This document shows positions 19,100 through 35,342 of a DNA stretch of 64,000 bases, piece by piece. How positions within the stretch are numbered: position 1 is the stretch's first letter; every line of letters starts with the position of its first letter. The translations under genes were made by a program, and so were the position numbers. The DNA lies in the IMG/VR virus record IMGVR_UViG_3300027833_001604, positions 32,001 to 96,000 of that record; one strand, given 5' to 3'. The DNA is from a virus. The notes under the pieces were generated by a model, which was not told the DNA's origin, searched no databases, and saw nothing but the letters and a program-made list of their open reading frames with translations.

Positions 19100-19936
19100 C
19101 TACTCGTCGTGTGTGTTGACATAGTTCTGTTTGAACGATGTCTGCGGATTCTCTCCGCCATTTACACGGTTGTTTAGATGTTTTACATATTGGACCATGT
19201 TATGATCGGAAAATGAATCTAATTTACCTTTAAACAATCCTCTAATAATACCACGCCACACATCTTTGACTCGTTGCCATCCTGTTAAGTTTCTAAGGTT
19301 ACCATAGTGATTAAAGTATTGGCATTGTCCATGATGAACATAACCAAATATTATAAATGGAACTCTAGCTACTATGTCTGCGTTGTTAAGCCAACGATAA
19401 TGTGTAAAAGGAAAATTGTCAAGGTAAGTTCTCCAACCTACTCTTGGTGATCCAAATGTATGTAATTCTTTAGGATTATATAATGCACTGTCGCCTCTGC
19501 AACGACTTGCTACTATAGTTGACATAGCTGCACCAAGTGAATGTCCACATAACCAAATGTGACGTTTTGCTTGTTCTCTAACTAGGTCTTCTTTGATTAA
19601 ATCCCATAGTTTGTCTACTTCACCTTTAAACCCACCATGCACTCTGCCCACTGTTTCTGCAACAACTGGAAATGCTCTGGCGTCTGCTTTAATATCATTG
19701 TATTGTGTTGGCTGTGTGCCTCTGCATGCAATCACTAAATCATGTTTATTCATAAAGCGATATGCTTCTGCACCATCTATGTTATAAAACTCAACAGTAG
19801 TGAATCCTAATTTCCTTGCTAGTTTTTTAACCTCACTTGCTTCATAATAAGCAATTTGGGCCAGTTCTGCAAATAATAAGGCTCGTTCATTACCTGATAG
19901 TAATTCTATTTTAGTTTTTAGTTTTGTGCTAAACAT
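19100..19936 (-). CDS. Lipase class 3 (alpha/beta hydrolase)
   Basis: 'VIACRGT', 'VHGGF', GHSLG nucleophile, 'TFGSPRVG', 'NNADIVARVP'. Confidence 0.92.
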   Translation of the reverse strand: MFSTKLKTKIELLSGNERALLFAELAQIAYYEASEVKKLARKLGFTTVEFYNIDGAEAYRFMNKHDLVIACRGTQPTQYNDIKADARAFPVVAETVGRVHGGFKGEVDKLWDLIKEDLVREQAKRHIWLCGHSLGAAMSTIVASRCRGDSALYNPKELHTFGSPRVGWRTYLDNFPFTHYRWLNNADIVARVPFIIFGYVHHGQCQYFNHYGNLRNLTGWQRVKDVWRGIIRGLFKGKLDSFSDHNMVQYVKHLNNRVNGGENPQTSFKQNYVNTHDE

Positions 19937-19949: not shown

Positions 19950-21075
19950 CCTTACGTTTAGGTATCTTACTATCTGCACTTGAAACACATGCTTTTGTTG
20001 TGCATATTGTAGGTTTATCAAACAATTTAAACCCTGTTTCAATATTACCTAACGGTTGATCACCACAACTATAACTACGTTTTATACTTCCGTCTGGCTC
20101 ACGTATGATAATACCTTGGTATCCACTGTTACACATCCAGCCTTTGAAGTTATTAAACTCAAATGCATTAAAACGTTCCGCTTGGTCCATATACCATTTT
20201 TTGCCTTTAGAGTCTGTAAACTCTACTTGCATGTTCCACGGAACACTAGCATCGTTTCTACCAATAGTATACTCTGGCATTTCAAAACTTGGCTTAGGAC
20301 GTTCAACTACTCTTGCTTCTGCAGCTTTTTGTTCTGTATAACTACGCTGTGGCATTCCATTGTGTAATTTCTTTTTCATCTCAGGTGTATAACCATCTAC
20401 TACTCTACTTGCAGTTGGATCTGACTGAGGTTTTAGTGTAACGTTAATACCTTGTTTATGAAAGAACAATGCATTATCATAATATGTATCAAACAGCTCA
20501 GGCACCATAACCATGTTAATAGTTATTTGCACATCATGTTCTTGACAAAGTATTAGTTTATCTGCAAGGTCTTGCATCTTCTCTGGTGTGTCAACATGCT
20601 CGATATGTAAACTACATGTAATACTAGCTCTATGAAAATGCTTTACGTAATCAACATACGTTTCAAACCATTTCATTGGCCTACTACAATTGCTTGTCAT
20701 ATGCACACTTGTATAGTTTGTGTTATGCACATCATCTGCTAGATGTTTTAACATATCTAAGTAACCAGGATGGAATGTAGGCTCGCCTCCACTTAAACTA
20801 AAATGGAAACTATTGAATCCGTTTTGTCTTGCTTGGCGTTTTATCTCGTCTATTGTTTTTAAGTTAAGTTCAGTAGGACGATGGTCCTTGCGATCACTAC
20901 GAGCATAAGGCCAGCAATAAGAACATCTGTAGTTACAGAATCTTCCTAGTAACCAACTAACTGTAAATAAATCACGATACAATAAAGTCCGTTGACCAAC
21001 TTGAACTAAATCATCAAATGGTATTTTTGTAAAATCATAATTTGACCACTTTAAGTCGTCTGTATCATTGCTCAT
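19945..21075 (-). CDS. Radical SAM protein with C-terminal Twitch-like Cys cluster
   Basis: CNYRCSYC, 'SGGEPT', C-terminal 'C..G..PDG..SC..C..C'. Confidence 0.9.
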   Translation of the reverse strand: MSNDTDDLKWSNYDFTKIPFDDLVQVGQRTLLYRDLFTVSWLLGRFCNYRCSYCWPYARSDRKDHRPTELNLKTIDEIKRQARQNGFNSFHFSLSGGEPTFHPGYLDMLKHLADDVHNTNYTSVHMTSNCSRPMKWFETYVDYVKHFHRASITCSLHIEHVDTPEKMQDLADKLILCQEHDVQITINMVMVPELFDTYYDNALFFHKQGINVTLKPQSDPTASRVVDGYTPEMKKKLHNGMPQRSYTEQKAAEARVVERPKPSFEMPEYTIGRNDASVPWNMQVEFTDSKGKKWYMDQAERFNAFEFNNFKGWMCNSGYQGIIIREPDGSIKRSYSCGDQPLGNIETGFKLFDKPTICTTKACVSSADSKIPKRKV

Positions 21076-21637
21076 CTTTGTTTCCTATTTGTAATGGATC
21101 CACGCTTAGTTCATTAACTGATAAATGCTCTGGCATATTAATTACGTATTCAATTAAGTCTACGGCTTCGTCTAGTGTCATTGTTTTACGTCCTGGGTGC
21201 TTGTGTGCATTGTTCTCTAATGTGCCAAATGTAACATAACTTACCTTAGGACCACCTGACCAAATGCTTTTTAGACCCATTGCATTGCTTGTGCTACGTA
21301 GGGCCTTCTTTTCTTGTTGATAAAGCCAATCGCTACCCTTTGTAGCTCTGTCAGTTGTGGAGCCTAAATTAACTATATGTAGTCGTTTAAGGTGTCTTAA
21401 AGCGTCTTTATAGACTACATCTAGCACCAGTGTTTGATTGAAGCGCCATAATGCACTAGAGTTAATAAAAACGTCAAAGTTAAGAGCCTTTTCTGCAAGC
21501 TTCTCTCTATAGCCATTTTCAGTTAAATCGTAGCCCCATGTAGTTCTACCAACAAATACTGTATCAGGCCATCTTTTGGCAATAGCACTTGCTAAACCTT
21601 TTTCTGGATTACCTGTGCATAGTATTGTTTTAGACAT
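21065..21637 (-). CDS. Short-chain dehydrogenase/reductase
   Basis: 'ILCTGNPEKGLA', 'DVFINSS', 'VNLGS', YxxxK 'YQQEK'; start adjusted to MSKTIL. Confidence 0.8.
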   Translation of the reverse strand: MSKTILCTGNPEKGLASAIAKRWPDTVFVGRTTWGYDLTENGYREKLAEKALNFDVFINSSALWRFNQTLVLDVVYKDALRHLKRLHIVNLGSTTDRATKGSDWLYQQEKKALRSTSNAMGLKSIWSGGPKVSYVTFGTLENNAHKHPGRKTMTLDEAVDLIEYVINMPEHLSVNELSVDPLQIGNKDEQ

Positions 21638-22856
21638 CAATGTATCCTTCAAACTCAGGACATGCTTCAAGTAGTTTACCACGTTGCAGTTCATCCATTT
21701 TGAGATTGTAATCAACAAACTGTTGCCATAAATCTTCGTGCCAATCTTCAGCTGTCATATACTTTAGTGTGTCCATTACTTTAGGCCACTTTTGGTATGG
21801 TAGTAAATTTAATGCTGCTTTTTCTTTTAATGCCACAGGTAATACACGTATGTTCATACAATCTGGATGATTAAGAATATTAAGATACACTTGATCACCT
21901 TCCAATCCACGTGACTCTGCAAAGTCCAATAGTTCATGTAATGCACATATGTTAAGTGCTTGAACTGTGCAATGTATTTGAATATCTACATTATCAAACG
22001 TGCTTAATTCATCAAAGTTTTTCTCTACTTTTTCCCAACTACTTGGATAACGAATATATCTATCACGATGTCCAACTGCATCAATACTACAGTTAAGTTG
22101 CACACGTTTAAACTTACTCCAGTATTCAATCATCTTAGGTGGAATATTAGTTAGGTTAGTATTATATTTTAGTTTAATTCCACCTGCTAAATCATTTTCA
22201 ATACAATAGTCAAGTAATTTATATTGTGATGTAGCTAGTGTAGGCTCACCACCTGTTAAGTATATCTCTTGAACTGTATGTGCAATGTCTTGGAAGTTTA
22301 GCCCTGTCTTTTTAAAGTCTGGCCATTCAGTCATTACGTTCATAAACTTTAAAGTCTCACCTGTAAGTTCTACTGGTGGATCTAATTTCGCTGTTGGAAC
22401 TACTGCATTCCAATCTTTAACCCACATGCTACTTGCCCAAGGATTACACATTCTGCATTTTAAATTACATAGGTTGCCTAAACGTAAATCAACATAACGC
22501 ACATCCACTGGAATCTTAGTATCTACTTTAACATCATCTGTCCACCACTTTTCATTAAAGCCTGCACGTGGGCTACGAATGCCTGCGTCTTCTTCACGGA
22601 AACAACGAACACACATCTCTGGCTTTTCACCATTGAGAAACTCTTCTCTGATTTTTGTGTATGTAGGACTGTTCCATACTTCTTCTAAGTCATGTTTATA
22701 AATTTTAAACGGCTTGTCTGTTTCAGGGTTTACAATTTGATTTGTATTAGGATTACTGTTACAACACACCCTAAAGCTACCCGCAGCATTTGTTGCCACA
22801 TGCATAAACGGTAGCACACAAAATGTCTTACTTGGTAATGGTTTATCTGTTTTCAT
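21630..22856 (-). CDS. N-terminal Twitch-domain radical SAM protein
   Basis: 'FCVLPF..G.FRVCC..CVRCF', CNLKCRMC..SS, 'TGGEP', 'YNTN'. Confidence 0.92.
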   Translation of the reverse strand: MKTDKPLPSKTFCVLPFMHVATNAAGSFRVCCNSNPNTNQIVNPETDKPFKIYKHDLEEVWNSPTYTKIREEFLNGEKPEMCVRCFREEDAGIRSPRAGFNEKWWTDDVKVDTKIPVDVRYVDLRLGNLCNLKCRMCNPWASSMWVKDWNAVVPTAKLDPPVELTGETLKFMNVMTEWPDFKKTGLNFQDIAHTVQEIYLTGGEPTLATSQYKLLDYCIENDLAGGIKLKYNTNLTNIPPKMIEYWSKFKRVQLNCSIDAVGHRDRYIRYPSSWEKVEKNFDELSTFDNVDIQIHCTVQALNICALHELLDFAESRGLEGDQVYLNILNHPDCMNIRVLPVALKEKAALNLLPYQKWPKVMDTLKYMTAEDWHEDLWQQFVDYNLKMDELQRGKLLEACPEFEGYIDV

Positions 22857-22858
22857 TA

Positions 22859-22975
22859 TTATTCTCGTTTTGATAGTTTGGATTGTTTGTTTTTACCTGA
22901 CAGGTAACGGACCTCATCTGGCTCTCCAAACAGTTTTGTCCACCACTTTGTGATTAAGGCTTCCAGTTTTTTCAT
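22859..22975 (-). CDS. 38-aa peptide (not in ORF track)
   Basis: MKKLEALITKWWTKLFGEPDEVRYLSGKNKQSKLSKRE; GAGA upstream; stop 2 nt before the rSAM start. Confidence 0.6.
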   Translation of the reverse strand: MKKLEALITKWWTKLFGEPDEVRYLSGKNKQSKLSKRE

Positions 22976-23002
22976 ATGTTTCTCATAACGTTACTATTTA
23001 TT

Positions 23003-23974
23003 TTAAATAAAGTCTTGGTAGTTAGTACCATGTATCTCATCCATAATTTCGCTTTGTTCTATTAATATCTTTCTTAGTATTCCATCTTGCATTGCGTCAG
23101 GCGACATAAATGCTGGTTTTATTACAGGAGTTGATTGAAAGTAGTTTATTTTATTACTGTCACACCAATCTATTATTTCATCTAAGTTGTTTCTATTAAA
23201 CACCATAGGAAGTATAGTCACAGTCATATGTGTGTTCTTAGGTTTTTGCTTATTAAATATAACAGCATTTTCACTAGTTGTCAACCAGCTAGAACCAGGG
23301 CGTATGTATTCATAACGTTCACCTACTGCTTCTATGCTTATGTTTATTTCTACTCTTCTAAACTTCTCAAACAAATGATTCCATGCTGTCATGTCATAGC
23401 TTCCATTTGTTATTAAGTGTAATTCAATTGCAGATGCAACATCTTCGTCAATTAGACGTTGTATTATTTTCTTTACTTGTGGTATCATAAATGGTTCACC
23501 ACCTGTAAATTTTACAATCTTTGCATCTAACATAAGATGACTGAACTCTACTGCCTGCTTTGCCCAACGTGTATTAGGTTTATTATCATATTGCTTAGAC
23601 CAATTTTTATCTTGGTTATCTCTAACTATATTTGCCCATGTGCTACTGCTTGTCATATTACACATTCTACAAGCAAAATTACAAGTGTTGTTTATCTTTA
23701 AATCCCAATGCTTAATTCCTACTTCGTTTTCAAATTGCTTGTTATATGTTGTGCGTAAACTATCTCCTGTGAGTTCTTCACTTAGTTTACATTCAGCACA
23801 TTCATCTAGCCATTCAGTTTCACTACGCTTTCCCCATTCAGCATGACGTGTTTGCCAGTCGTCGGTCCAGAACAGGTTTTGTGTTCCTTGTTTTACTTCA
23901 AATGCACAACATGGCCTTACTGCTCCAGTAGGTCCTATTGTTACACCGTTTTTAAATATCGAACATCTTGGCAT
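23003..23974 (-). CDS. N-terminal Twitch-domain radical SAM protein
   Basis: 'C..G.VRPCC..CAEC', CNFACRMC..SS, 'FTGGEP'. Confidence 0.9.
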   Translation of the reverse strand: MPRCSIFKNGVTIGPTGAVRPCCAFEVKQGTQNLFWTDDWQTRHAEWGKRSETEWLDECAECKLSEELTGDSLRTTYNKQFENEVGIKHWDLKINNTCNFACRMCNMTSSSTWANIVRDNQDKNWSKQYDNKPNTRWAKQAVEFSHLMLDAKIVKFTGGEPFMIPQVKKIIQRLIDEDVASAIELHLITNGSYDMTAWNHLFEKFRRVEINISIEAVGERYEYIRPGSSWLTTSENAVIFNKQKPKNTHMTVTILPMVFNRNNLDEIIDWCDSNKINYFQSTPVIKPAFMSPDAMQDGILRKILIEQSEIMDEIHGTNYQDFI

Positions 23975-24707
23975 AATTTTTGTTTACTATTCTCTTAAAA
24001 TCGTCAGTTGGTCCACCATCGAATATCATATGTATACGTGGCTCTTCGCTACGATTCCATACTGCATGATAATGGCCAGTGTTAATCTTCATTGCCAGTC
24101 CAGGCTCAAATGGCATAGTGCCGTAATCTTGTATAACTAGTTTGCACCCATCTGGATTATTAATGGCTACATTAGTTGCACCTAGTCCTGTCATTCGTTC
24201 TCTGTCTTGATGTGGTCTAATCCAACCGCCTGGTAGTAGTGCCATAAATCTAACACGACTAAAGTTTTCGTATAGCATTTCATCTTGCATCCATTCTTTA
24301 GTAATTGGTGTAAATTTACTAATGTCTGTCCAGTCACTTAATTCATGTTCTGCTTCGTCTGGCATTCCGTAATCTTCTGGACAATTAGTATGCACACTAC
24401 TCATACCATGCACACATAAACTTAACCAGCCACCGCCGCTGTTTGCTCTGTGTAAACTAAAGCATTCAGTTTCTAGCAAGTGTATTGCTTCTGCATGTAT
24501 TTCTTTCCATGGCACATTAATATCTGGTAATGCTACCCATGGGACTCTTGTGTTATCACCAACGTCATTTAAATCTTCTGGTATAATTTGTTCTTTGTCA
24601 GCACTACCGGGCGAGCGTTGTGAATGTTTACGTTCGTTAGCGTAGAACCACTCCTTTGACTCTTCGTCAATTTCTTCCCAATATGCTAAACGTTTATAAT
24701 CTTTCAT
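23952..24707 (-). CDS. Asp/Asn beta-hydroxylase-like 2OG-Fe(II) oxygenase
   Basis: 'LLPGGWIRPHQD', 'NTGHYHAVWNRSEEPRIHM'. Confidence 0.85.
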   Translation of the reverse strand: MKDYKRLAYWEEIDEESKEWFYANERKHSQRSPGSADKEQIIPEDLNDVGDNTRVPWVALPDINVPWKEIHAEAIHLLETECFSLHRANSGGGWLSLCVHGMSSVHTNCPEDYGMPDEAEHELSDWTDISKFTPITKEWMQDEMLYENFSRVRFMALLPGGWIRPHQDRERMTGLGATNVAINNPDGCKLVIQDYGTMPFEPGLAMKINTGHYHAVWNRSEEPRIHMIFDGGPTDDFKRIVNKNYAKMFDI

Positions 24708-26185
24708 TATATTATTCCTGGTAACAATCTCATGTTTTGATACTCGTAGTATTCACCACCTGGTGTATCACCTGAGAAATATATAGTTTTGTTATTTTGC
24801 AATAACTCGTTGAATAGATCAACGAATGCCGCTTGTGCATTAAAGTTTGGTGAGTTAATATAATTGATTTCATATTGCCAGATATTACTTAGTTGTAACA
24901 ATGCTATACGATCTTTTCCAATTAGACTTGATAAACGTTTCCATTCTTTTACTATGTCAATTTTAATAAATTGATGATCCAGTGTTCTAATAAAATCCCA
25001 ATGCTCTAACCAATCTTCTTCGCTGTCATAACTTTCAATAAAGGCTAATGCATTTTCTTTGTCATACCAGATAAACTCATCACTTGGTAATCCCAAGTCA
25101 GTAATCACATGGAAGTTATCTTTATAGAACTTATCAAAGTCTAATCCATCCCAATGTTTTAATAGATGTTCTGTCCAGCCAATACCAAACGGACTAAAGT
25201 CTGTCCATAATATACGCTTGAGTGTATCACGTTGATGACTGATGTGCTTAAACTGATGTAACCCACTACACGGAACTACAAGTGTATCAATGCCCAGTGG
25301 GTCACCACCTGGAACATGTTCTGTATTAGTAACATACATAATATGTGTGTCCATTACTTTATATTGAAATAGTTCACGCTTGTCATCATTTACTAAATTA
25401 TATCCGTAACTACGACTTTCGTCAAGGCTAAGTCTTGTGTTAAAGTCATAATCAAAAAACCATTCTTTTGTAAATTCTAAATCATCTTCTACATAGCAAC
25501 ATATCTTATGATTACGTATATCGTAATCTAAGTTATGTATTGTTAAACCATTTAAAAATGCTAACGGAAATAACGTATTAAAAAAGTCATCATTAAAATC
25601 TTCTGGCTTATCAATTATTTCGCTGTCACCGTCAAACACTGCATCTTTGGCAGATACCCATGTAGGGGTGTAGTTATCATGCATATGTTCAGTTGATGAT
25701 CTATAGCTTGGATGTTGTTGTAACTGATCACCAATATTCTCTAAACTTTCAAACTGTGATAATAAAGGTTCAAATGCTTTAAGGTTAAGAACAATGCATT
25801 GCTCATGCCACTTAGGAGCCTGTCCTACATAGTCTATAATATGACCAGCTGCTAACCAATCAGTTTTGTTCCACTTGTTATCTATTGCATTTATTACTTC
25901 CTCGTCAAACTCTGTTTCGCCTGGCCAATTCCCATCAAACCAAATCACAGCATTTTGATATCCAAGAATACATAGATGTCTAATAGCATCTCCAAAAAAT
26001 CCTTCACGATATCTATCACAATGCAAGAAAGAATATTCTGTGCTGTTGTTAATATTGATTTGCATAAGTTTTTTTAGTTTGCCTGCATAAGCATCTTCTT
26101 CTTTTAAAGCAGGATGCAATACTTCATTGAAGAACACATGAACTATCTTATTATCTTTTAACTCTGGTTTTATTTTTAAATACAT
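24707..26185 (-). CDS. hypothetical protein, paralog of 26185..27636
   Basis: shared 'WFDG/WFEG', 'YxxNTE', 'HWxGxDF', 'SNI' blocks. Confidence 0.75.
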   Translation of the reverse strand: MYLKIKPELKDNKIVHVFFNEVLHPALKEEDAYAGKLKKLMQININNSTEYSFLHCDRYREGFFGDAIRHLCILGYQNAVIWFDGNWPGETEFDEEVINAIDNKWNKTDWLAAGHIIDYVGQAPKWHEQCIVLNLKAFEPLLSQFESLENIGDQLQQHPSYRSSTEHMHDNYTPTWVSAKDAVFDGDSEIIDKPEDFNDDFFNTLFPLAFLNGLTIHNLDYDIRNHKICCYVEDDLEFTKEWFFDYDFNTRLSLDESRSYGYNLVNDDKRELFQYKVMDTHIMYVTNTEHVPGGDPLGIDTLVVPCSGLHQFKHISHQRDTLKRILWTDFSPFGIGWTEHLLKHWDGLDFDKFYKDNFHVITDLGLPSDEFIWYDKENALAFIESYDSEEDWLEHWDFIRTLDHQFIKIDIVKEWKRLSSLIGKDRIALLQLSNIWQYEINYINSPNFNAQAAFVDLFNELLQNNKTIYFSGDTPGGEYYEYQNMRLLPGII

Positions 26186-27636
26186 TATTCGAATCCTATT
26201 CCTCTATTATCTGTTGCACTAAGAATTGCACTAGCAGGACACATTAAATCATTATCATTTATATCTGTTCCACTAAACCAACTATCTTCGTGTGTGTTAC
26301 ATACTCGTTCTATCATTTGTGTAAAACTTGTTTCAAGTGCAAACGGCTTTGCCATTAGTTTTGGTGTGATATAGCTATATATGTTACTACTCCAAAATAA
26401 TGTTTTGCTGTCATCCATTTGTTTAAACATATCATCGTGGTCGTATATTAGATCAATGTTAAAATATTGATGATTACACTGCTTTACTTTATTCCAAAAC
26501 TCTAACCACTTTACTGGGCCATCAAAGTAATCAATTACTCTCGACCAACGTTCGTGTGCCATTGCTACTAAACGGTCATTACAACCTGGGTGTGCGTGAA
26601 CCCACATGTCTACCCATTTTGGAAAGTCTTCTCCGTTCCAATGCTTTATTGTATCACGTTTAAACTGAACACTATCAGCGTCAAAGTCAAACCATACAAA
26701 ACGTGTATTCTCTGTCATTCCATACTTGTAAGCATAGTATAGAAGCTTAAAACCAGCCGTAGCGCCTACGTATTGCTCAAAGTTAGTATCTAGTGCTTGT
26801 TGTGAAATACTTGGGCTACTAGGCTCTGTATTAACGAAATAGATAGGGCTAGTTGGCCCATGTATTCTACTGATTAATCTATTGCCTTGATTAGATACAA
26901 CGCTATTATTGTATTCTTGTCCTGTAATACCCTTTTCAAATTCTGTTGTTCCCATGTGTGCTTTAGGCGTAAAAACATGTTCCATTAGGTTATCTGATAA
27001 TCCCCACACTGTAAGATTTTGAATGAAACTAAGTTGCATCCAATTGGAACCAAAGTTATGTTGATTTGAAAAATGCTCAGGACGAGGATCTGTAAACTTC
27101 CAATCAGGGTGAACATTAAGTCTGTAGTCACTGTCCTCGTAATTTAAACTTGTATCATAGTTTATACATTCTGGGTGATGTTCTGATTCCCAATATGGAC
27201 TTATGCTGTTATGTTTAATCCATTGTGGTATGTTTATTACTAGTAAAGTTCTTTCAAAGTAAGGATACTTGTCATTACCAGTTCGAAGTTGTCCACTAAT
27301 GATCCAATTTGGATCTTCTTTATTATTACGATCTATTTCATTTAGTAATGTTAAATTAAAATCCATTGTATCAGGCCATACACCTTCAAACCACAAACAT
27401 GCATATTTGTATCCTAATTTGTTCATAGCTGTTAGCCATGTTGCATCATATTGATTGTATACATTAACAATACCACCACGTAAATGATTGTTACATTCTA
27501 CATCTTGCAATACACTAAGTTTTTGTTTTAATATAGGTGTGTCATTGAGTTCTTTGTCAAGTGGCAAAAATGCATTAACGATAGGCCAGCTACCATCCAC
27601 ATGATTATATTCCCAACTTTGTTGACCTTGCTTCAT
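26185..27636 (-). CDS. hypothetical protein, paralog of 24707..26185
   Basis: same motif order; TAATG coupling. Confidence 0.75.
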   Translation of the reverse strand: MKQGQQSWEYNHVDGSWPIVNAFLPLDKELNDTPILKQKLSVLQDVECNNHLRGGIVNVYNQYDATWLTAMNKLGYKYACLWFEGVWPDTMDFNLTLLNEIDRNNKEDPNWIISGQLRTGNDKYPYFERTLLVINIPQWIKHNSISPYWESEHHPECINYDTSLNYEDSDYRLNVHPDWKFTDPRPEHFSNQHNFGSNWMQLSFIQNLTVWGLSDNLMEHVFTPKAHMGTTEFEKGITGQEYNNSVVSNQGNRLISRIHGPTSPIYFVNTEPSSPSISQQALDTNFEQYVGATAGFKLLYYAYKYGMTENTRFVWFDFDADSVQFKRDTIKHWNGEDFPKWVDMWVHAHPGCNDRLVAMAHERWSRVIDYFDGPVKWLEFWNKVKQCNHQYFNIDLIYDHDDMFKQMDDSKTLFWSSNIYSYITPKLMAKPFALETSFTQMIERVCNTHEDSWFSGTDINDNDLMCPASAILSATDNRGIGFE

Positions 27637-27767
27637 TTAGCTGCTTGCTCCAACAGTTGATTTAATTTAATTCGTAACTTGTCTAAATGCTTGTCGCTAA
27701 TTTTTTCAGCCTCGCATACACTTATACGTTCTTTTATGATTTCAATTTCTTTTAGAATATCTTTCAT
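27633..27767 (-). CDS. 44-aa coiled-coil peptide (not in ORF track)
   Basis: MKDILKEIEIIKERISVCEAEKISDKHLDKLRIKLNQLLEQAAK; RBS GGAGG; ATGA overlaps at both ends. Confidence 0.7.
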   Translation of the reverse strand: MKDILKEIEIIKERISVCEAEKISDKHLDKLRIKLNQLLEQAAK

Positions 27768-27943
27768 TCAATTTTCCTCCAATGATGTGTGTCTTGTTCA
27801 GTTGGCAGTTGGCCAATATATTCTTCACCTGTTTCCATATCTATTAGTTTCCATTTGCTTGGACATTTAGTCTTTACTTTTAATGTTATTGCTACATCAT
27901 AAGCAGGCACTTCTGCACCACTGACTCTTAACTTACGGTTCAT
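27764..27943 (-). CDS. 59-aa small protein (not in ORF track)
   Basis: MNRKLRVSGAEVPAYDVAITLKVKTKCPSKWKLIDMETGEEYIGQLPTEQDTHHWRKIE; ATGA overlaps. Confidence 0.75.
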   Translation of the reverse strand: MNRKLRVSGAEVPAYDVAITLKVKTKCPSKWKLIDMETGEEYIGQLPTEQDTHHWRKIE

Positions 27944-29175
27944 TTACTTTGTCTTTCGTTTTCCTGTGCTACAATGTCCATACCCTCAAGTGGCATATTC
28001 AAATAAGTCTTAACCATTTTCTTTAGGTTTATATCTTGTTTATAACGTTCTTCTATATCACGTGTATACTTTCGCATACGAGCATATATCATATAATCGC
28101 TTTGATTGTTTTCCATGTAGGTTGCAAACCTTTTCATCTCTGGATGTTCGTGTTGGTTAGCTCGTAACTTTCTAATAATAGCATCTCTGTAGTCGCCTTG
28201 CCAGATTGCTGGAGACAAATACTTAGGGGTATGTAGTATGTTGGCTGTAATAAACTTTAGGTCAACTGGGCTGTCTTTCCAAAACTGAAAGAACTCTGGC
28301 ATTTGATATATGTTGTGTGCTTGCACTGTAATACCAGCGGCAACATCAATTCCAGGTTCATTGTTTAGTGCCATCATGTTAGCGTAAACTGTATCCCAAT
28401 TGCCGTCTTGTCTAATGTAATTGTATACATCATCAATACCGTCCATACTTACTTTAATGTTTACGTGTTTAAATTCATTCCATATTTTAATTAAGTCATA
28501 CTTCTTAAACTTAATATAACTTAGATTAGTAGCATAACGTAATTTTATTTTCTTCTTAAGATCCTGTGGTATTCCAGCTAACAAGTCGTAGTGTTCTTTA
28601 TTAATGATAGGCTCACCGCCAGTAAACTGTAGTGTATGCACTGTGTCCCATAGTTCAGGCCATTCATTTAAACTAGCAAACAAATCAGTTGGACGCAACA
28701 AACGTGTTTCATATCCATCTTTAGTATACTTGCTAATGATGTCTAAGTCTGCTACACGCTTGTAAGAACTGTGTGTGCTACACATAATACACTTTAGGTT
28801 ACAGAAGTTACTTACTTTAAGTTCCACCCAGTAAGGCGGGTTGTTGACGCTGTAATCGTCATTTACGCTTATCTTATCTGCAAATGTATCCCAATTATCT
28901 TTTTCCCATTGTATGCGGTTGCTAACGATTCCACTGTCCTCGTTGTGCCAGCACACTTCACAGCGTTCTGGTCTTTCGTCATTTGCTAAGGCCCGTCTTA
29001 GCTCTTTATAGTTGTCGTTATTCCAGCTCTCAAGTGCTGACTCGCCTGGGTTATTCAATGGGACTTCTTGTGCTTCGCAACATGGAACCATGTCACCACC
29101 AGCACTGCCATAGATATGCATATACGGTAGCATGCAAAAACTTTTGCTATTTTTGAGTTTGTCTTTGTTAATCAT
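27940..29175 (-). CDS. N-terminal Twitch-domain radical SAM protein
   Basis: 'FCMLPY..VPCC..CEVCW', CNLKCIMC..SS, 'FTGGEP'. Confidence 0.92.
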   Translation of the reverse strand: MINKDKLKNSKSFCMLPYMHIYGSAGGDMVPCCEAQEVPLNNPGESALESWNNDNYKELRRALANDERPERCEVCWHNEDSGIVSNRIQWEKDNWDTFADKISVNDDYSVNNPPYWVELKVSNFCNLKCIMCSTHSSYKRVADLDIISKYTKDGYETRLLRPTDLFASLNEWPELWDTVHTLQFTGGEPIINKEHYDLLAGIPQDLKKKIKLRYATNLSYIKFKKYDLIKIWNEFKHVNIKVSMDGIDDVYNYIRQDGNWDTVYANMMALNNEPGIDVAAGITVQAHNIYQMPEFFQFWKDSPVDLKFITANILHTPKYLSPAIWQGDYRDAIIRKLRANQHEHPEMKRFATYMENNQSDYMIYARMRKYTRDIEERYKQDINLKKMVKTYLNMPLEGMDIVAQENERQSK

Positions 29176-30383
29176 TAGTAAGGTATATACTCTATTTTAT
29201 CTTTATACTCTGCTTCACACAAAGTTTTTAATCTGCGTATGCATGGCTCGTTAAAATCAAAGCCACGTATTTTCCAAATATGTTTTAGGTTAGCCAAATA
29301 AGCTGCACTGAAATCTTCAGCACCGTTTGGCTTACACATATCTTCTACTAGTTTTTTCATCTTGTTAACACGGTTAGGATTGATAACCGTTTCATTATAC
29401 TGATAACGAAATGCGTCTAGTAGTTTTTCTTTAAACCAATCAGGCCAGTGTGTAACACTAAGGTTGTTTGGTTCGTATACTGTTTGTAGTATAACATTAT
29501 TTACTTTCTTTACACTGCGGGCCCAAACAACAAAGTCAAACAAGTATAGTATATTCATAATACTAATTGTGCATGCTATATTAACTTTAACTTTGTCTGG
29601 ATACTCTTGCTTAAATGCCAGCCACTTGTCTAGTGTATCTTCTATCTTTTCCCACTTGCTAGGATAACGTATCATGTCATTAAGTTTACCATGTGCGTCA
29701 ATACTCATGCTAAGTGTAAGTTCTTTGAATTGAAACAATGCATCATATTCTGCTTTCTTTGGCCAAAATGTGCAATTGCTAAAAATTTCCATATGTATCT
29801 GTGGAGCCAATCCTGCGTCTGCAAGTCTTAAAACAAACTTCATAAACTGTGGATGCAAGAATGGTTCACCACCTGTAACTTTCATATGCTTTAGATGTTT
29901 TAATGCATCCAAGTCAATTGAATCAAAATCTACAACTTGATTCTTTTTTAGTTTAGTAATCAAGTCAATTGCTGCTTGTGAGTTTTTGTTAAACTTCAAG
30001 TAGTCGTCATCCCAATTGTGACTAAACTCTGGTCCACATGTTTGACATGTTAAGTTGCATAATCTACCCACTGTAATTTCTAAATACTCTAAACGCACCT
30101 CATCAGTAAAGTCTGTAAAGAACTCATCTGCTTCAGTTCTCATACTGCTACCTTTGGTTTCCTCATCAGCTTTACATTTGTAGCAACCAGGGTGCCATTC
30201 ATTACGCATCATAGTTTCACGTATGTCAGTGAACATCTCACCATACACGTTAACATGTTCCTTGTCGCTTTCTTCTAGAAACCTATCATGGAATCTACAA
30301 CAAGGTGTAGTTGGAACACCATGCATAATCATACCCGCTTTAAACGGATATGCACATGCGTTTTTAGGTAGTTGTTTAGACAT
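29175..30383 (-). CDS. N-terminal Twitch-domain radical SAM protein
   Basis: 'CAYPF..PCC..CYKC', CNLTCQTC, 'TGGEPF'. Confidence 0.9.
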   Translation of the reverse strand: MSKQLPKNACAYPFKAGMIMHGVPTTPCCRFHDRFLEESDKEHVNVYGEMFTDIRETMMRNEWHPGCYKCKADEETKGSSMRTEADEFFTDFTDEVRLEYLEITVGRLCNLTCQTCGPEFSHNWDDDYLKFNKNSQAAIDLITKLKKNQVVDFDSIDLDALKHLKHMKVTGGEPFLHPQFMKFVLRLADAGLAPQIHMEIFSNCTFWPKKAEYDALFQFKELTLSMSIDAHGKLNDMIRYPSKWEKIEDTLDKWLAFKQEYPDKVKVNIACTISIMNILYLFDFVVWARSVKKVNNVILQTVYEPNNLSVTHWPDWFKEKLLDAFRYQYNETVINPNRVNKMKKLVEDMCKPNGAEDFSAAYLANLKHIWKIRGFDFNEPCIRRLKTLCEAEYKDKIEYIPY

Positions 30384-31369
30384 TAAAGCCAGGTACCCTT
30401 TTGTTTGTAGTTTTTAAGTGCATGTCTAATGTTTACTCTATTATACACGCCATCTTTTTTAAATCGTTTCCATTGTTCCGCCTCTGGTGCTTGTGCAATG
30501 TGTATTGTATTAGTTGGCTCAAGTCCGTAGTGTTCACATAGTTCTACGTGTTCTTTCATATACTTCTTAGGCATAGTGTCAGGGCTAAAATTTCTCATAA
30601 GCTCGTTTGCAATGCATACGTTTAAGTGAATACCATGCTTCCATTCTGTTTGCACTGCTAATGCGCCTTCGTTTAGTTTACTGAATACGATACCTGCACG
30701 CCAGTTACCACAGCTAAGACCTTTTGTAGTGCTGAATGCAACCATCTTAATACACTTTCTATCAAGGTTAATTTCAATACCGTGACATGTTCCAAACCAA
30801 GCCATGTCTACAAATACAGGAATGTCGTTTGCATCACAGAAGTCTAACGACTCTTCCATCTTGCTATGCTTTGCACCAGTGCCACTAAATGGCAAACTAA
30901 TAAGCAATGCATCGCCTTTTTGCAATGGAGTGTCATCAATGTAACGATGGCTTAACCATTCTTCGCCTAGGATTGCGTCTCTATTGTATGGATACTCTCC
31001 ACGGAACATACGGAACTCACGTCCATTTTGTAAACACCAGTAGTGCCACCAATCCATTCCTTGTGTAGTTCCTAGGCTTACAAACCTATTTGGATAACTA
31101 CGTAAGCCTTCAATTTTATTTAACTTACTGCTTTCAATCCAATCTGGATACAATTCTAAATATGCATCACATTCGTCTTGCATACTAAAGATATCCATGT
31201 TGCCAAACACATGTTCAACTACATGATCATAAAACGGCATATTCCAAATACTGTTGCCGTTTGTTTCAAAAATTTCAGTTAGCTTTTTTGCTTCTTCTAC
31301 ATTAAGATGATCGAACGGACTATAGTGCGGTGTCATCTCGGTTCTGCTTGTTACTTTTTCATTCTTCAT
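30383..31369 (-). CDS. PLP-dependent fold-type I enzyme (aminotransferase-like)
   Basis: 'VFVDMAW' (DxA) and 'FSTTKGL..WRAG' (SxxK..RxG). Confidence 0.75.
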   Translation of the reverse strand: MKNEKVTSRTEMTPHYSPFDHLNVEEAKKLTEIFETNGNSIWNMPFYDHVVEHVFGNMDIFSMQDECDAYLELYPDWIESSKLNKIEGLRSYPNRFVSLGTTQGMDWWHYWCLQNGREFRMFRGEYPYNRDAILGEEWLSHRYIDDTPLQKGDALLISLPFSGTGAKHSKMEESLDFCDANDIPVFVDMAWFGTCHGIEINLDRKCIKMVAFSTTKGLSCGNWRAGIVFSKLNEGALAVQTEWKHGIHLNVCIANELMRNFSPDTMPKKYMKEHVELCEHYGLEPTNTIHIAQAPEAEQWKRFKKDGVYNRVNIRHALKNYKQKGTWL

Positions 31370-31946
31370 AATCTAAATCCCTTAATAAAACTTCTTTCCA
31401 ACGCTCACCGTCAAAGAATAATAATTTTGCACGAGTTGAATTGACTTCCATATAAGAAGCTAGTGTTCCTGCTCCTACGGAATGATCCATTTTATCAGCA
31501 TTGTATATGTTATGTAATCGCACCGGTGCATTAATATCTACCTGTTTTGCGGATGCATTAACAACTACTTTAACATCTCTGTCGTTAAGTGATTTTGGAG
31601 TTCCAACCACAAGTTGAGCTTCGTGATATTTACTTGTTCTATATACACCTCTAAAAGCTGCGGTTGTAACTGTAATACTTTTCTCATTGTCTACTTCAAG
31701 TGAGTTTGATATACCAAAGTATATTTGTTGTCCTACATTATCTTCAAAGTTTCCGTTAATTGCTGAATAGTCATGTAATATTCCTCTAAACAAATCTTCA
31801 TTGTTTTCACTTGGAATTTTATCCCATCGCATATTTGTTTGTAATGGGTAATCAAACGAGTTAAAATCGGTTTTATGGTTCTCAAACTTTTCTATATCAA
31901 CTGGCTTAATTTTTTTGTGTGTGTGACGTGCTGGTGTAAAATTCAT
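31359..31946 (-). CDS. hypothetical protein
   Basis: 195-aa ORF coupled on both sides. Confidence 0.7.
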   Translation of the reverse strand: MNFTPARHTHKKIKPVDIEKFENHKTDFNSFDYPLQTNMRWDKIPSENNEDLFRGILHDYSAINGNFEDNVGQQIYFGISNSLEVDNEKSITVTTAAFRGVYRTSKYHEAQLVVGTPKSLNDRDVKVVVNASAKQVDINAPVRLHNIYNADKMDHSVGAGTLASYMEVNSTRAKLLFFDGERWKEVLLRDLDYEE

Positions 31947-33196
31947 TTGTAATTCTTCATTTCTGGTATACTGTTAAATGTATCGGTGTTTCTAAGTCTG
32001 TCTAGATCCTTGGTATATTTTAAAAACCAATCCCAATACTTGCTTGCTTCGTCTTCATCTACTTCTCGCCCAAGTCCTGCACGTATATCGTCTATGCCTG
32101 TCTGGTATTCAAACATGTCAACTCTACTATTGCTGATAGGCCACATTTCCATACTTGGTATGTGTTCCATTTTCTCTAATGCTTTGTTTTTTAGTTCTCG
32201 TGGCATATGTGCTATATTTAAATATGCTGGTGTTACTACAACATTTGTCATACTTATACTAGCACGTTTTCTGTGATTTGTATAGAACCAATCCCATACT
32301 TTATCTAAATTAAATATGTTTGTAGTCATTACTGTTACTGCAAATGTAATTTCAATGTTATCTTCTGCATAAAACTTTGCTAAATTATCATTTAAGTCAT
32401 CCCAAGAATAATTATCACCACCACGTATAACACTGTATAAATCATCTGTTGCTTCAATACTAATTAACAGTTCGATGTGTTTAAACTCTTTGAATATTTC
32501 TTTAAACCTATCTTCAAATACTGTTCCGTTGGTGCTGATGTCTAGTGCAACATTTTTAGCAATGCCGTTGTCAACAAACCATTTTAGCACTTCGTAACAA
32601 CGCTCGTCATACAATGGCTCACCGCCACGTAGTGCAACCCACTGTAAATTCTTAAAGTATTCTGGGTTAGCAAACAAGTTATCCATAAAGCCTAGTTCTT
32701 TAACACCGTTGAATCCAATTGGTTGTTCTGTCCAATACTCTGGCATTTCTTTGTTTAGTGATTTGCCATCTTTAGTCCAACCTGTTGATACAAACGGTCC
32801 ACAATGAATACATGCTAGGTTACACTTGTTGCTAAGTGTAAAGTCTAAGTATCTAATATCTGGTGTGCTGTCTACATCTAGTGTTTCACTTTCCATACGT
32901 AAATCATAATCTAGTTTATCCCAGAAATACATACGTCTGCTACGTCCACTTTTTTCCTTCTTTGCACAGTTGGCACAACTAGGTGGAATTTGTCTATTGC
33001 GATGACTCTCACGTAATGCACGATAGTCTGGGCCTTCCCATATTTCTTTTAGGGTGTAGTCATTGATGTTACCTAACTTGTCTTTGTAGATAATATCAGG
33101 AACAACATTACCGCCCCACTTAATAGTCAATGCATGCCACGGTGCTATACACGTAGGCAAATTTTTCATATCTAAGAATTTATTTCTATACGCCAC
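31943..33196 (-). CDS. N-terminal Twitch-domain radical SAM protein (degenerate Twitch)
   Basis: 'CIAPW..VVPD..CANC' (PD replaces PCC), CNLACIHC, 'RGGEP', 'STNGT'. Confidence 0.9.
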   Translation of the reverse strand: MAYRNKFLDMKNLPTCIAPWHALTIKWGGNVVPDIIYKDKLGNINDYTLKEIWEGPDYRALRESHRNRQIPPSCANCAKKEKSGRSRRMYFWDKLDYDLRMESETLDVDSTPDIRYLDFTLSNKCNLACIHCGPFVSTGWTKDGKSLNKEMPEYWTEQPIGFNGVKELGFMDNLFANPEYFKNLQWVALRGGEPLYDERCYEVLKWFVDNGIAKNVALDISTNGTVFEDRFKEIFKEFKHIELLISIEATDDLYSVIRGGDNYSWDDLNDNLAKFYAEDNIEITFAVTVMTTNIFNLDKVWDWFYTNHRKRASISMTNVVVTPAYLNIAHMPRELKNKALEKMEHIPSMEMWPISNSRVDMFEYQTGIDDIRAGLGREVDEDEASKYWDWFLKYTKDLDRLRNTDTFNSIPEMKNYK

Positions 33197-34250
33197 ATTC
33201 TACTCCACATATATTTTGACATTGTTTCCAGCTACCACTATTTAATGCATCATTTAAATTTCCAGTAAACCAGTCATTTGATAATACCTGAGGTAGGCTA
33301 TATTTTTTAAGAGAATTTTCTACTCTTGCTTCAATAAAACTTGCATCAACAAGTTCTATAGGATTATGTGATGCAGTATCTACACCAAATAAACTTGTGT
33401 GGCAACAAGGCCATACAACACCCCATGGATCAATTTGCACTTCTCTATCATTATACCAAGGGCATACTGTTTTACCTTCAAGTTTTTGTTTAAATTCTAA
33501 TTGGTTCTGTGTATATTGATGGATGTTATAATCTCTATTATCACTCATGTTCCATTTGTTGTCAAAGTCTAGATTCTGTTCATCGTATTCATCTATGTCA
33601 TAACATGCATGTATTCTGTATGAATCTTTGCCTAAATCAACTAACAAGTTATCACCATGACTGTGTCTCATTTGAAAGCGAAGTGCATTAACTTCCCATG
33701 CAAGTTCTTCTACTTGTTTGACTTGATGCTTATTGTGTTCAAACAGTGTCATAGTAACACTGGCTCTTCCGCCTACACTTGTAAATGCTTTTATGTTTTC
33801 TACAATTTTATTAAAGTCTGTTTTTCTGCGATATATAGCATGTGTATCTTCCATTCCATCTACTGCAAATACAACCAAATGATTTGTAAATCTTTTACAT
33901 ATTGATCCCATGTCAGTCCAAAACTTTTTAGTTCTCATACTTCCATTTGTATGTAAGTATAAACAAGTTTCTGGGTGATATGTAGTCCATATGTCAAGCA
34001 TTTCTACTAATTTTGGATGCATCATTGGATCACCCCAATTACCATTTAATGTTAGTTTTCCGATAAACCATCCGTGTGTATCTTTACTAGCAAGACGTTC
34101 CCATACTTCCATGTCGAAGTGTTCAAGTATTAATTCATCCTTAACTTCATCACCGTCTTTGTTTCGCACACAAGCACCACATCTTGCATTACAAAAACTA
34201 GTAATGTCAATTTGTAAATTGGTTACTTCCTTGGCCCATCTGAATTTCAT
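33186..34250 (-). CDS. Radical SAM protein with C-terminal SPASM/Twitch domain
   Basis: CNARCGAC, 'GNWGDPMMHP', C-terminal 'CPW..IDPWGVVWPCC..CQNIC'. Confidence 0.9.
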   Translation of the reverse strand: MKFRWAKEVTNLQIDITSFCNARCGACVRNKDGDEVKDELILEHFDMEVWERLASKDTHGWFIGKLTLNGNWGDPMMHPKLVEMLDIWTTYHPETCLYLHTNGSMRTKKFWTDMGSICKRFTNHLVVFAVDGMEDTHAIYRRKTDFNKIVENIKAFTSVGGRASVTMTLFEHNKHQVKQVEELAWEVNALRFQMRHSHGDNLLVDLGKDSYRIHACYDIDEYDEQNLDFDNKWNMSDNRDYNIHQYTQNQLEFKQKLEGKTVCPWYNDREVQIDPWGVVWPCCHTSLFGVDTASHNPIELVDASFIEARVENSLKKYSLPQVLSNDWFTGNLNDALNSGSWKQCQNICGVECGV

Positions 34251-34253
34251 GTA

Positions 34254-35342
34254 TTAGATATACTTCTTATTTGTAATGTAATCGTGGCAGTCGCCTTCAC
34301 GCACCATATCACTTGTTAAACAATGGATTCCACCGTCCCAAAAGTATTGGTGTCTAAAACGCCATACAATAGGCTCAATACCATGTGCTTCCATTCTACG
34401 AAATGCATCATCATTTCTGCCTGTGCAAATAACTGTATTCTCATCTAGTGATAATACATTAACATCAAATACACTTTCGTCTGCATATCCAACCCAATGT
34501 CCTAACCATTTTTGAACATACTCTTTATAGTATCTACGCTTACGAGTATCTAAAAAGTCCTGTGGCATTTCGTGGTCGTCATCAACTTCAATAATGTCCC
34601 AATCTTTAAATTCTTCTGGAACCCACTTTTTGTTCCATGTCATTAATACACCTGGTCTAAGTAATGCAATTTTACCATCTGCATGCCCGCCTGTTTTAAT
34701 CTCAAGGAACTTGGTGTCTGGATAACGTTGTGTAATTTCACGTTTCATCCACTCTTTACCAAGCAGTGTGCCTTTACCTTTTTTGTTATCTTCTTCCCAT
34801 GCTTGTGAAAACAAAATGTGACGTCCACATTTTATCATGTTAGCCGCATGGTATAAAACTTTTTGTTCTTCTGAGTATGTATCATACCCAATTCCGCCAC
34901 GCACCATTGCACCCGGCATTGAAACCCAATCGGCTCCATTTTTAAACAACTCTACCATATGATCGTAATATGCTAGGTTCTCAAAGTATCTATTGTCGCC
35001 ACCTGTAAAACATTCAAATACTGAATTACCATATGGCATTAGTGTATCACGTGGCATTAGTGGGTGGTTGGGAAATCCACAACTCATCCAAGGTAATTGG
35101 ATTTGTTCTTCACCATTAATAGTGAAAATATTGTTAGGGCGTAATACTTCGATGCCCCTGTCTTCTAATAGTTTTGCAAGGACTTCAATGTCCTCTTGTG
35201 TTTCCGTAAAGATTTGACGCATAGTTTCACGTGTTTCAGGATCCTTGTGCCAATCAAATGTTTCTGGTGGGAATGGAGCGCCAAGTATAACCTTCTTCAA
35301 AGGTTGAAACTCAGTCCATGCATTAACTGCCGGTGTAGTCAT
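34254..35342 (-). CDS. Amidinotransferase (glycine/inosamine-phosphate amidinotransferase family)
   Basis: 'VNAWTEFQPLK', 'PRD', catalytic His 'HAD', C-terminal 'GGIHCLT' catalytic Cys. Confidence 0.88.
   Translation of the reverse strand: MTTPAVNAWTEFQPLKKVILGAPFPPETFDWHKDPETRETMRQIFTETQEDIEVLAKLLEDRGIEVLRPNNIFTINGEEQIQLPWMSCGFPNHPLMPRDTLMPYGNSVFECFTGGDNRYFENLAYYDHMVELFKNGADWVSMPGAMVRGGIGYDTYSEEQKVLYHAANMIKCGRHILFSQAWEEDNKKGKGTLLGKEWMKREITQRYPDTKFLEIKTGGHADGKIALLRPGVLMTWNKKWVPEEFKDWDIIEVDDDHEMPQDFLDTRKRRYYKEYVQKWLGHWVGYADESVFDVNVLSLDENTVICTGRNDDAFRRMEAHGIEPIVWRFRHQYFWDGGIHCLTSDMVREGDCHDYITNKKYI

Follow-up and report, generated by a model that had tools for sequence, protein, structure and literature searches.

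The closest precedent for the locus described here is a module of the Campylobacter phages CP220 and CPt10, in which radical S-adenosylmethionine (SAM) enzymes and a 'glycine amidinotransferase' form an interchangeable unit whose function is not known (Timms et al. 2010, PMC2853527). A second one is found in the marine, T4-like Synechococcus phage S-SCSM2R, where an amidinotransferase, a radical-SAM (rSAM) enzyme, a fragment of an AHBA-synthase-like protein of the pyridoxal phosphate (PLP) enzyme family and 2-oxoglutarate (2OG) oxygenases lie in one block, which its authors read as 'antibiotic synthesis genes' (PMC12801897). We analysed a window of 64,000 nucleotides (bases 32001-96000 of the 109-kb IMG/VR viral contig IMGVR_UViG_3300027833_001604), in which an amidinotransferase gene stands at the head of a long run of tailoring genes. 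The core unit of this run consists of a short PLP enzyme (PLP328), an amidinotransferase with His in place of the catalytic Asp, and an rSAM enzyme that has lost a Cys-Cys (CC) pair (NTwi417); its gene families, folds, catalytic residues, linkage and distribution are directly observable. We propose, with a probability of roughly 0.45, that this unit belongs to a multi-step tailoring pathway, which finally places a guanidino group on a scaffold, probably a glycan-like one, in an abundant uncultured marine jumbo phage.

CP220 resembles this locus in being a large phage with one amidinotransferase amid five rSAM genes, next to two nucleotide-diphospho-sugar-transferase-like genes. Its enzyme, however, is 27% identical to the one described here, carries the canonical triad Asp and belongs to the canonical clade, its rSAM proteins match rSAM354 and rSAM217 of the window at about 22-27% identity and none of the N-terminal twitch paralogs, and no orthologue of PLP328 was seen. 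The S-SCSM2R enzyme (25% identity) likewise has the canonical Asp, and its surroundings differ by many canonical glycosyltransferase (GT) genes and a single rSAM gene. The core unit and the gene inserted into it are encoded as follows:

34254-35342, minus strand: amidinotransferase, His165 variant, 362 amino acids (aa), from PDB sequence matches, a residue table and a tree
33186-34250, minus strand: rSAM354, 354 aa, generic SPASM/MoaA-like rSAM protein, from Pfam and NCBIfam
31943-33196, minus strand: NTwi417, from its NF033640 score (261 bits) and Cys pattern
30383-31369, minus strand: PLP328, short fold-type I PLP enzyme, predicted to be of the class-I/II amino-acid aminotransferase/lyase type, from Lys216, Asp188 and an AlphaFold2 (AF2) model

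Pfam and NCBIfam searches gave no match for the protein encoded at 34254-35342 (-). All phmmer matches in the PDB (E<=10) were amidinotransferases, namely HsvA (1.5e-28), StrB1 (1.7e-19), SxtG (1.2e-17) and AGAT (~1e-13), with neither arginine deiminase nor DDAH among them, and thus bear out a preliminary description of this DNA, which had called the gene an amidinotransferase. The protein is an amidinotransferase by descent, for which arginine-dependent amidino transfer is predicted from the sequence. Its motifs P97-R98-D99, H220-A-D222 and G-G-I-H340-C341 are present and invariant in its relatives: the catalytic Cys and His of AGAT (C407 and H303) correspond to C341 and H220, both of which are invariant in 115 homologues from the fetched loci, and the guanidinium-binding Asp pair (D170 and D305 in AGAT) corresponds to the equally invariant D99 of the PRD and D222 of the HxD motif. 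The same motifs had earlier been called intact, which is true of these residues, but overlooks the remaining member of the triad: in the alignment with StrB1, the triad Asp (AGAT D254, StrB1 D179) falls on His165 of the phage protein.

Asp254, His303 and Cys407 are the accepted catalytic set of this family and are conserved in CyrA, AoaA, Amt1 and StrB1 (PMC3684758). In our sample of 115 homologues, every one of the 46 members of the phage and Bdellovibrionota clade has His at the triad position. Asp is found in 68 of the other 69, including those of CP220, S-SCSM2R, Pseudomonas, Xenorhabdus and Streptomyces, and Ser in the last one, a divergent second copy from a viral contig. In a quick maximum-likelihood tree, the split between the canonical enzymes and the His clade has 99% SH-aLRT support, and the main phage set forms one group (97%). 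This tree is unrooted, leaves the bacterial rows unresolved beside the phage clade and takes its canonical-Asp rows from amidinotransferases of Streptomyces and other bacteria, with StrB1 itself outside the sampled rows. The clade-wide Asp-to-His synapomorphy and its phylogeny are new in the present analysis. The clade also shares a conserved insert (W283, G285, E289, F292 and D293), which HsvA does not have. A search for fused, longer forms of the enzyme found none, which is weak evidence. Two viral contigs (L041 and L042) carry highly divergent second amidinotransferase copies with 27-28% identity, long branches and Asp or Ser at the triad position; some phages of the group seem to possess more than one amidinotransferase type.

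The amidinotransferase was found in 41 related loci in IMG/VR, on contigs of up to 328 kb, and additionally in seven Bdellovibrionota loci. Linkage was counted over 41 viral plus bacterial loci whose downstream flank measures 5 kb or more, and the gene arrangement is conserved far beyond chance. An orthologue of NTwi417 lies within 3 kb of the amidinotransferase gene in 37 of the 41 loci and directly adjacent to it in 18, which makes it the most tightly linked partner of the amidinotransferase; this strict pairing is new in the present analysis. PLP328 orthologues are found within 5 kb in 34 of the 41 loci. The sole clade without a nearby PLP gene, which includes a complete 328-kb genome with terminal repeats, carries it about 33 kb away in the same genome, so that the co-occurrence with the PLP enzyme in related genomes, on which the preliminary description had staked its proposal, was indeed observed.

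Among cultured phages the enzyme is rare. A homologue was present in only 6 of 50,697 phage records, which agrees with the earlier remark that amidinotransferases are unusual in phages, and a megablast of the island against the same 50,697 records gave no match. Among cellular genomes (one genome per species, 185,579 species), homologues with more than 30% identity were confined to seven metagenome-assembled genomes of Bdellovibrionota. In these loci, the PLP328 gene (38-45% identity) is divergently oriented to the amidinotransferase gene and NTwi417 overlaps the 3' end of the latter; they also hold 6-11 further rSAM genes, PF05118 and KdoO-like oxygenases, and counterparts of rSAM376 and NTwi477 at about 60% identity. 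One of these bacterial islands, on a 917-kb contig, is bordered by rpoD and dnaG on one side and by genes for a methyltransferase and a UDPGP-family nucleotidyltransferase on the other. We considered this UDPGP gene as a relative of unk492 and unk483, the tandem proteins of the phage island described below, and found it unrelated to them. Within the phylum the island is a rarity: of 401 genomes sampled, only its own source genome has it.

In the sea, the phage island appears to be widespread: at least 64% of the sampled words of its 5-kb core were present in marine metagenomes from at least 13 independent studies. Of the 30 bins of the sub-operon, 27 are covered by contigs of marine metatranscriptome libraries, contributed mostly by relatives with 90-96% identity; a few near-identical pieces, within PLP328, rSAM354 and unk338, come from the library X20.

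PLP328 has a single, marginal match in Pfam (Aminotran_1_2), and a profile of 14 orthologues gave a marginal class-I aminotransferase match exactly over the D-x-A and S-x-x-K motifs. These motifs, from which a PLP enzyme had been recognized earlier, proved sound: D188, A190, S213 and K216 are invariant in all 14 orthologues, with K216 as the Schiff-base Lys and D188 as the pyridine-nitrogen Asp, and according to the AF2 model (pLDDT 83.9) the protein folds as a fold-type I aminotransferase. Its 50 best structural neighbours are all alpha-amino-acid enzymes (Foldseek E ~1e-9; VIA-align Z 18.7-20.1 over ~280 residues, effectively tied). They include kynurenine aminotransferases (KAT) and aromatic aminotransferases, succinyl-DAP aminotransferase (DapC), ACC synthase and C-S lyases, as well as the arginine-acting PLP oxidases RohP, MppP and Plu4, and none is a sugar or cyclitol aminotransferase of the DegT/StsC type. 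PF01041 (DegT/DnrJ/EryC1) has no match in PLP328 or anywhere on the 109-kb contig. As judged from the top 50 neighbours of the model, PLP328 thus appears to be of the alpha-amino-acid type rather than of the DegT/StsC type, an assignment that is also new in the present analysis.

The arginine-type PLP enzymes among the tied top fold matches raise the question whether the island makes a diffusible guanidino small molecule, either an amidinated polyamine, as produced by HsvA, or an arginine-derived metabolite or toxin, by which the phage would manipulate its host or competitors. HsvA of Erwinia amylovora (PDB 5wpi), a polyamine amidinotransferase, is the best solved relative of the phage enzyme (1.5e-28 over residues 20-356), and together with the AmtA-type enzymes of Pseudomonas and Xenorhabdus it shares the pentein fold family, the Cys, the His and the two substrate-binding Asp residues; moreover, with its variable tailoring genes the island is organized like a biosynthetic gene cluster. 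However, the phage enzyme has at most 29% identity to the HsvA clade and is separated from it (99% support), with its triad His, its own insert and a different gene context. Furthermore, no nonribosomal peptide synthetase, polyketide synthase, ATP-grasp or exporter genes were seen in the phage or bacterial islands, and ten or more rSAM steps are hard to fit on a polyamine. We therefore consider a diffusible product rather improbable.

The window encodes twelve rSAM proteins: seven that pass the model NF033640 (N_Twi_rSAM) with 184-419 bits (curated cut-off: 170 bits), three more in the island, and two elsewhere. Apart from NTwi417 and rSAM354 and two members upstream of the amidinotransferase gene (NTwi424 and NTwi477, listed below), those of the island, followed by a SPASM-like fragment, are:

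29175-30383, minus strand: NTwi402, NF033640 236 bits, full Cys set
27940-29175, minus strand: NTwi411, NF033640 313 bits, full Cys set
23003-23974, minus strand: N_Twi_rSAM protein of 323 aa, NF033640 184 bits
21630-22856, minus strand: N_Twi_rSAM protein of 408 aa, NF033640 375 bits
19945-21075, minus strand: rSAM376, 61% identical to Bdellovibrionota orthologues
17805-18458, minus strand: rSAM217, a 217-aa rSAM core
17456-17812, minus strand: SPASM-like fragment, 118 aa, at the distal end of the run

All seven N_Twi_rSAM proteins keep the CX3CX2C motif, and six have the N-terminal C...CC...CxxC set. The exception is NTwi417, whose N-terminal cluster domain is missing the CC pair of ligands. 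The same loss, which sets this orthogroup apart from NF033640, is found in all of its approximately 40 phage and bacterial orthologues, every one of which lies near an amidinotransferase gene. In the present lineage, rSAM354 is inserted between the two genes. The most conserved rSAM protein is NTwi477 (58-93% identity). The 4.5-Mb Bdellovibrionota genome with the island on the 917-kb contig carries about 22 N_Twi_rSAM genes, of which 14 fall within 30 kb; no gene scored above the cut-off in any of 14 control genomes. In the open literature, we found no characterised NF033640 member, no description of N-terminal twitch rSAM enzymes and no mention of such rSAM arrays in jumbo phages or Bdellovibrionota.

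The genes for rSAM217 and the SPASM-like fragment overlap by 8 nt, and their combined length is about that of rSAM354; they could be a frameshift-split gene or a genuine two-piece enzyme. The two rSAM genes off the island, at 1084-2460 (+) and 11225-12235 (+), lie on the opposite strand amid genes of replication and nucleotide metabolism, and the former has an N-terminal SPASM-like domain.

The preliminary description had compared the twitch rSAM enzymes here with BtrN and proposed a streptidine-like logic: a short-chain dehydrogenase/reductase (SDR) or a BtrN-like rSAM enzyme would oxidize a sugar or cyclitol, a sugar-type aminotransferase would aminate it and a StrB1-like enzyme would amidinate the amine, to decorate virions or DNA. 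The likeness is real in that streptidine loci also combine an amidinotransferase, an aminotransferase and an oxidizing enzyme, StrB1 is the second-best solved relative of the phage protein, the rSAM-PLP-amidinotransferase unit is conserved, and the island encodes proteins with a GT-A fold and an SDR-like protein:

21065-21637, minus strand: SDR-like protein, about 190 aa, truncated and divergent, from motifs and weak PDB matches

The twitch assignment itself holds for the seven proteins that pass NF033640, and an auxiliary Cys-rich domain is common to them and to BtrN (2-deoxy-scyllo-inosamine dehydrogenase). Their architecture, however, is not that of BtrN, in which the twitch domain is C-terminal and the auxiliary 4Fe-4S cluster follows the core: in the phage proteins the SPASM/twitch match lies at residues ~14-98, ahead of the rSAM core, and the rSAM enzyme linked to the amidinotransferase lacks two cluster ligands. 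The SDR-like protein has degenerate motifs (TGNPEKGLA, NSSA and YQQEK, against the classical TGxxxGxG, NNAG and YxxxK) and weak SDR matches in the PDB, which cover only the C-terminal (YxxxK) half (E 0.008-0.1); it has no Pfam match at E<=0.01. Of the 41 related viral loci only 3 have a counterpart, and the bacterial loci have none; this gene is accessory and stands outside the core logic. Neither PF07994 (inositol-phosphate synthase) nor PF01761 (DHQ-synthase-like) occurs on the 109-kb contig, itself about 30% of the genome, and the enzyme clade is separate from the sampled canonical-Asp amidinotransferases, among which StrB1 is not included. Taken together with a PLP enzyme that has only amino-acid enzymes, and no DegT/StsC type, among its top 50 structural neighbours and with a contig devoid of nucleotidyltransferase and GT2 genes, these results do not sustain the aminocyclitol analogy, and we regard a streptidine or aminosugar route as decidedly unlikely.

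A link to glycan chemistry is nevertheless plausible and is suggested, among other things, by two tandem paralogs in the middle of the run:

24707-27636, minus strand: unk492 and unk483, ~490 aa each, from an AF2 model and fold comparison

A profile of unk492/483 found no relative among PDB sequences, so that fold comparison alone is informative. The AF2 model of unk492 (pLDDT 81.8) has two domains. Residues 10-232 adopt a GT-A or nucleotide-diphospho-sugar-transferase fold (VIA Z ~10, root-mean-square deviation 3.3, 163 aligned residues), with chondroitin synthase, LARGE1, LgtC, SpsA and Mimivirus R699 as neighbours, and residues 245-483 a class-I methyltransferase fold (Z 9-10 to EgtD and NNMT). 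Sugar nucleotidyltransferases have the same fold as GT-A enzymes. In BFVD, the look-alikes are uncharacterised Caudovirales proteins over the full length, followed by GT2 and GT25 enzymes. A single acidic residue is conserved at the expected strand end (D84 in unk492, Glu in unk483 and the bacterial homologue). Homologues of both domains are encoded by separate genes in the bacterial island; this split and the model-based assignment of a GT-A and a methyltransferase fold are new in the present analysis. In two Bdellovibrionota loci (L047:13033-15069 and L049:13247-15457), a 2OG or PF05118 oxygenase is fused to the methyltransferase-fold domain that in the phage makes up the C-terminal half of unk492/483, a fusion that suggests hydroxylation and then O-methylation of the same substrate.

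The match of unk492 to LH3/ColGalT1 and Mimivirus R699 would also fit a modification of amino acids, peptides or proteins, in which hydroxylation of Asp/Arg/Pro/Lys-type side chains, rSAM epimerisation or cross-linking, and glycosylation with methylation as in collagen Lys would be combined with the conversion of Lys- or Orn-type amines to homoarginine or arginine, either within a protein of the virion or host or in the free amino acid. The nearest folds of PLP328 are amino-acid enzymes, including the arginine-acting RohP, MppP and Plu4, PF05118 is a family of Asp/Arg/Pro hydroxylases, SPASM/twitch rSAM enzymes often mature peptides, and the virions of S-SCSM2R contain a second amidinotransferase-annotated protein (ORF266) and a prolyl hydroxylase (PMC12801897). 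Yet the contig encodes no PqqD/RRE domain, which weakens a reading as RiPP (a peptide made by the ribosome and modified after translation). No obvious precursor peptide is found among the small open reading frames (ORFs), PLP enzymes seldom act on proteins, and no conserved substrate-like gene is common to the phage and bacterial islands. On balance, such a target appears unlikely to us.

We thus return to the guanidino-bearing, glycan-like product as the favoured reading. The route given here is our inference as regards the order of its steps, the use of arginine as donor, the type of scaffold and the biological target. An rSAM or Fe/2OG-dependent step would oxidize a position of the scaffold, the PLP enzyme would install or supply a primary amine, and Cys341 of the amidinotransferase would carry the amidino group of L-arginine onto this amine to give a guanidino group. 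The six other N-terminal twitch rSAM enzymes, the three further rSAM enzymes, the PF05118 and KdoO-like oxygenases and unk492/483 could contribute C-H functionalisation, hydroxylation, methylation and transfer, while MetK and a nucleosidase would supply SAM and clear its by-products. The earlier idea of an amine that is made and then amidinated, with the help of rSAM enzymes, fits the conserved three-gene core, although its aminosugar specifics do not. The scaffold is most likely glycan-like, possibly a sugar with an amino-acid-derived arm, rather than an aminocyclitol. In favour of a glycan, unk492/483 have a GT-A fold, a UDPGP gene lies at the edge of the bacterial island, and the CP220 and S-SCSM2R modules are found beside GT genes. 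Of about 10 satellite N_Twi_rSAM sites, 3 lie within 1-4 kb of GT2 genes (~0.4 estimated by chance). Furthermore, conservation of the core genes is combined with turnover of the accessory ones, a pattern also shown by loci for glycans and natural products.

Several points weigh against this proposal. PLP328 resembles amino-acid enzymes rather than sugar enzymes, and the replacement of the triad Asp by His across the whole clade means that transferase chemistry is not assured. The 109-kb contig holds no gene for nucleotide-sugar activation or a nucleotidyltransferase, no canonical GT2 and no DegT; GT2 is also absent from the complete 328-kb relative and from the main bacterial islands. The GT-A match of unk492 reaches a Z of only ~10, and a canonical DxD motif is not evident. 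Finally, the contigs from RNA libraries are compatible with expression and do not prove it, since DNA carry-over is possible. A wider reading, which is conceivable and in our view doubtful, takes the His-variant amidinotransferase and its obligate CC-less N-terminal twitch rSAM neighbour as the core of an undescribed system, in which ten or more further radical steps build a new class of guanidino-bearing, hypermodified decoration on a glycan, protein or nucleic acid, in giant phages that are among the most widespread of the ocean. It would be part of this equally tentative reading that the Cys-His-His catalytic set and the rSAM family are both without characterised precedent.

The core lies within a conserved tailoring island. 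A gap-free minus-strand run extends from 35342 down to 17456 and comprises about 20 genes whose stops and starts overlap or abut; the region first described (21065-35342) corresponds to its proximal two thirds. As noted there, the amidinotransferase gene heads the run, with a 139-bp divergent intergenic region and an AGAGG Shine-Dalgarno sequence upstream and about 20 genes downstream. Beyond a plus-strand cassette at 35482-37327, similar kinds of genes resume up to about 43.8 kb, and the whole tailoring island thus covers ~26 kb (17456-43782). In addition to the genes already listed, it contains:

37312-41417, minus strand: upstream part of the island with unk289, NTwi424, a nucleosidase and NTwi477, from family searches and relatives
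39436-39987, minus strand: nucleosidase of the methylthioadenosine/S-adenosylhomocysteine/5'-deoxyadenosine type, within the upstream part
35482-37327, plus strand: divergent two-gene cassette of a weakly KdoO-like oxygenase (Pfam E 0.0025) and a 338-aa protein (unk338)
31359-31946, minus strand: unk195, 195 aa, lineage-specific accessory protein, no Pfam or NCBIfam match, in 2 related loci only
27633-27943, minus strand: pair of translationally coupled small ORFs (59 aa and 44 aa), between NTwi411 and unk483
23952-24707, minus strand: Fe/2OG oxygenase of PF05118 (Asp/Arg/Pro-hydroxylase family, Pfam 1.1e-10)
19100-19936, minus strand: class-3 lipase (PF01764, 1.3e-17)
18455-19090, minus strand: second PF05118 oxygenase, in the distal part of the run

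A full-length SAM synthetase lies elsewhere in the window:

53128-54219, minus strand: MetK with three MetK domains (Pfam, E down to 8.5e-58)

MetK and the nucleosidase at 39436-39987 are likely to supply cofactor for the twelve rSAM genes and the methyltransferase steps. The KdoO-like oxygenase and unk338 are kept beside the amidinotransferase in 25 and 18 loci, respectively, and the PF05118 oxygenase at 23952-24707 has orthologues in both phage and Bdellovibrionota loci. In contrast to these conserved parts, the lipase, unk289, unk195, the SDR-like gene and the second PF05118 oxygenase turn over fast among close relatives; the lipase is a lineage-specific addition, as none of the 41 related viral loci encodes a counterpart within 10 kb of the amidinotransferase. 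A promoter-like site (TTGACA-17-TATACT) is found at the divergent cassette, but sigma-70 promoter-like sites are not enriched in general (76 versus 83 in shuffles), and no promoter can be named for the minus-strand run. Four related phages share the 59-aa ORF (27764-27943, minus strand) at 75-88% identity; it is assigned to no family, and another ORF of 38 aa lies between the N_Twi_rSAM genes at 21630-22856 and 23003-23974. None of the gap ORFs (59, 44, 38 and 31 aa) resembles RiPP precursors, as they are neither Cys/Gly-rich nor repeat-like.

The contig also encodes a T4-type clamp loader, an exonuclease, an HNH endonuclease and a ThyA-family enzyme, a gene set that, with a CheckV completeness of about 30%, indicates a fragment of a jumbo phage with a genome of roughly 350 kb. 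The ThyA-family enzyme, the nucleosidase and a phosphorylase of the PNP family bring into play a hypermodification of DNA or nucleotides, by which a base-appended amine would be turned into a guanidino group for restriction evasion. Phages of the CP220 type encode a QueD-like protein near the module as well, and thymidine hypermodification pathways are known to use PLP and rSAM enzymes. The same island, however, resides in bacterial chromosomes without a DNA-modification context, and it contains no recognisable gene for a DNA transferase, a kinase or a DpdA-like protein, although no search was aimed at them. We hold this explanation to be highly improbable. The two genes concerned are:

9833-10714, plus strand: ThyA-family enzyme (342 bits), for which thymidylate synthase and dUMP hydroxymethylase are both possible
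8414-9091, plus strand: PNP-family phosphorylase

A phage that is found nearly intact in marine metagenomes from at least 13 studies thus gives more than 30 kb, including MetK and the flanking rSAM genes, to this chemistry. Should this yield a surface glycan, protein or DNA decorated with guanidino groups, it would be a novel way for a phage to recognise its host, exclude superinfecting phages or evade defences. Three groups of proteins would gain a first function, namely the N_Twi_rSAM family with its dozens of paralogs per genome, the His-triad amidinotransferases and the minimal class-I PLP enzyme. The Asp-to-His change poses a simple, testable question on catalysis, and the rare Bdellovibrionota that carry the island may offer a cellular system for genetics.

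One further gene of the contig deserves mention. An NAD-dependent epimerase/dehydratase (PF01370, E 1.8e-52) is encoded on the minus strand at contig positions 98395-99114, outside the window and about 31 kb from the island, and is the sole canonical sugar-nucleotide-type gene on the contig.

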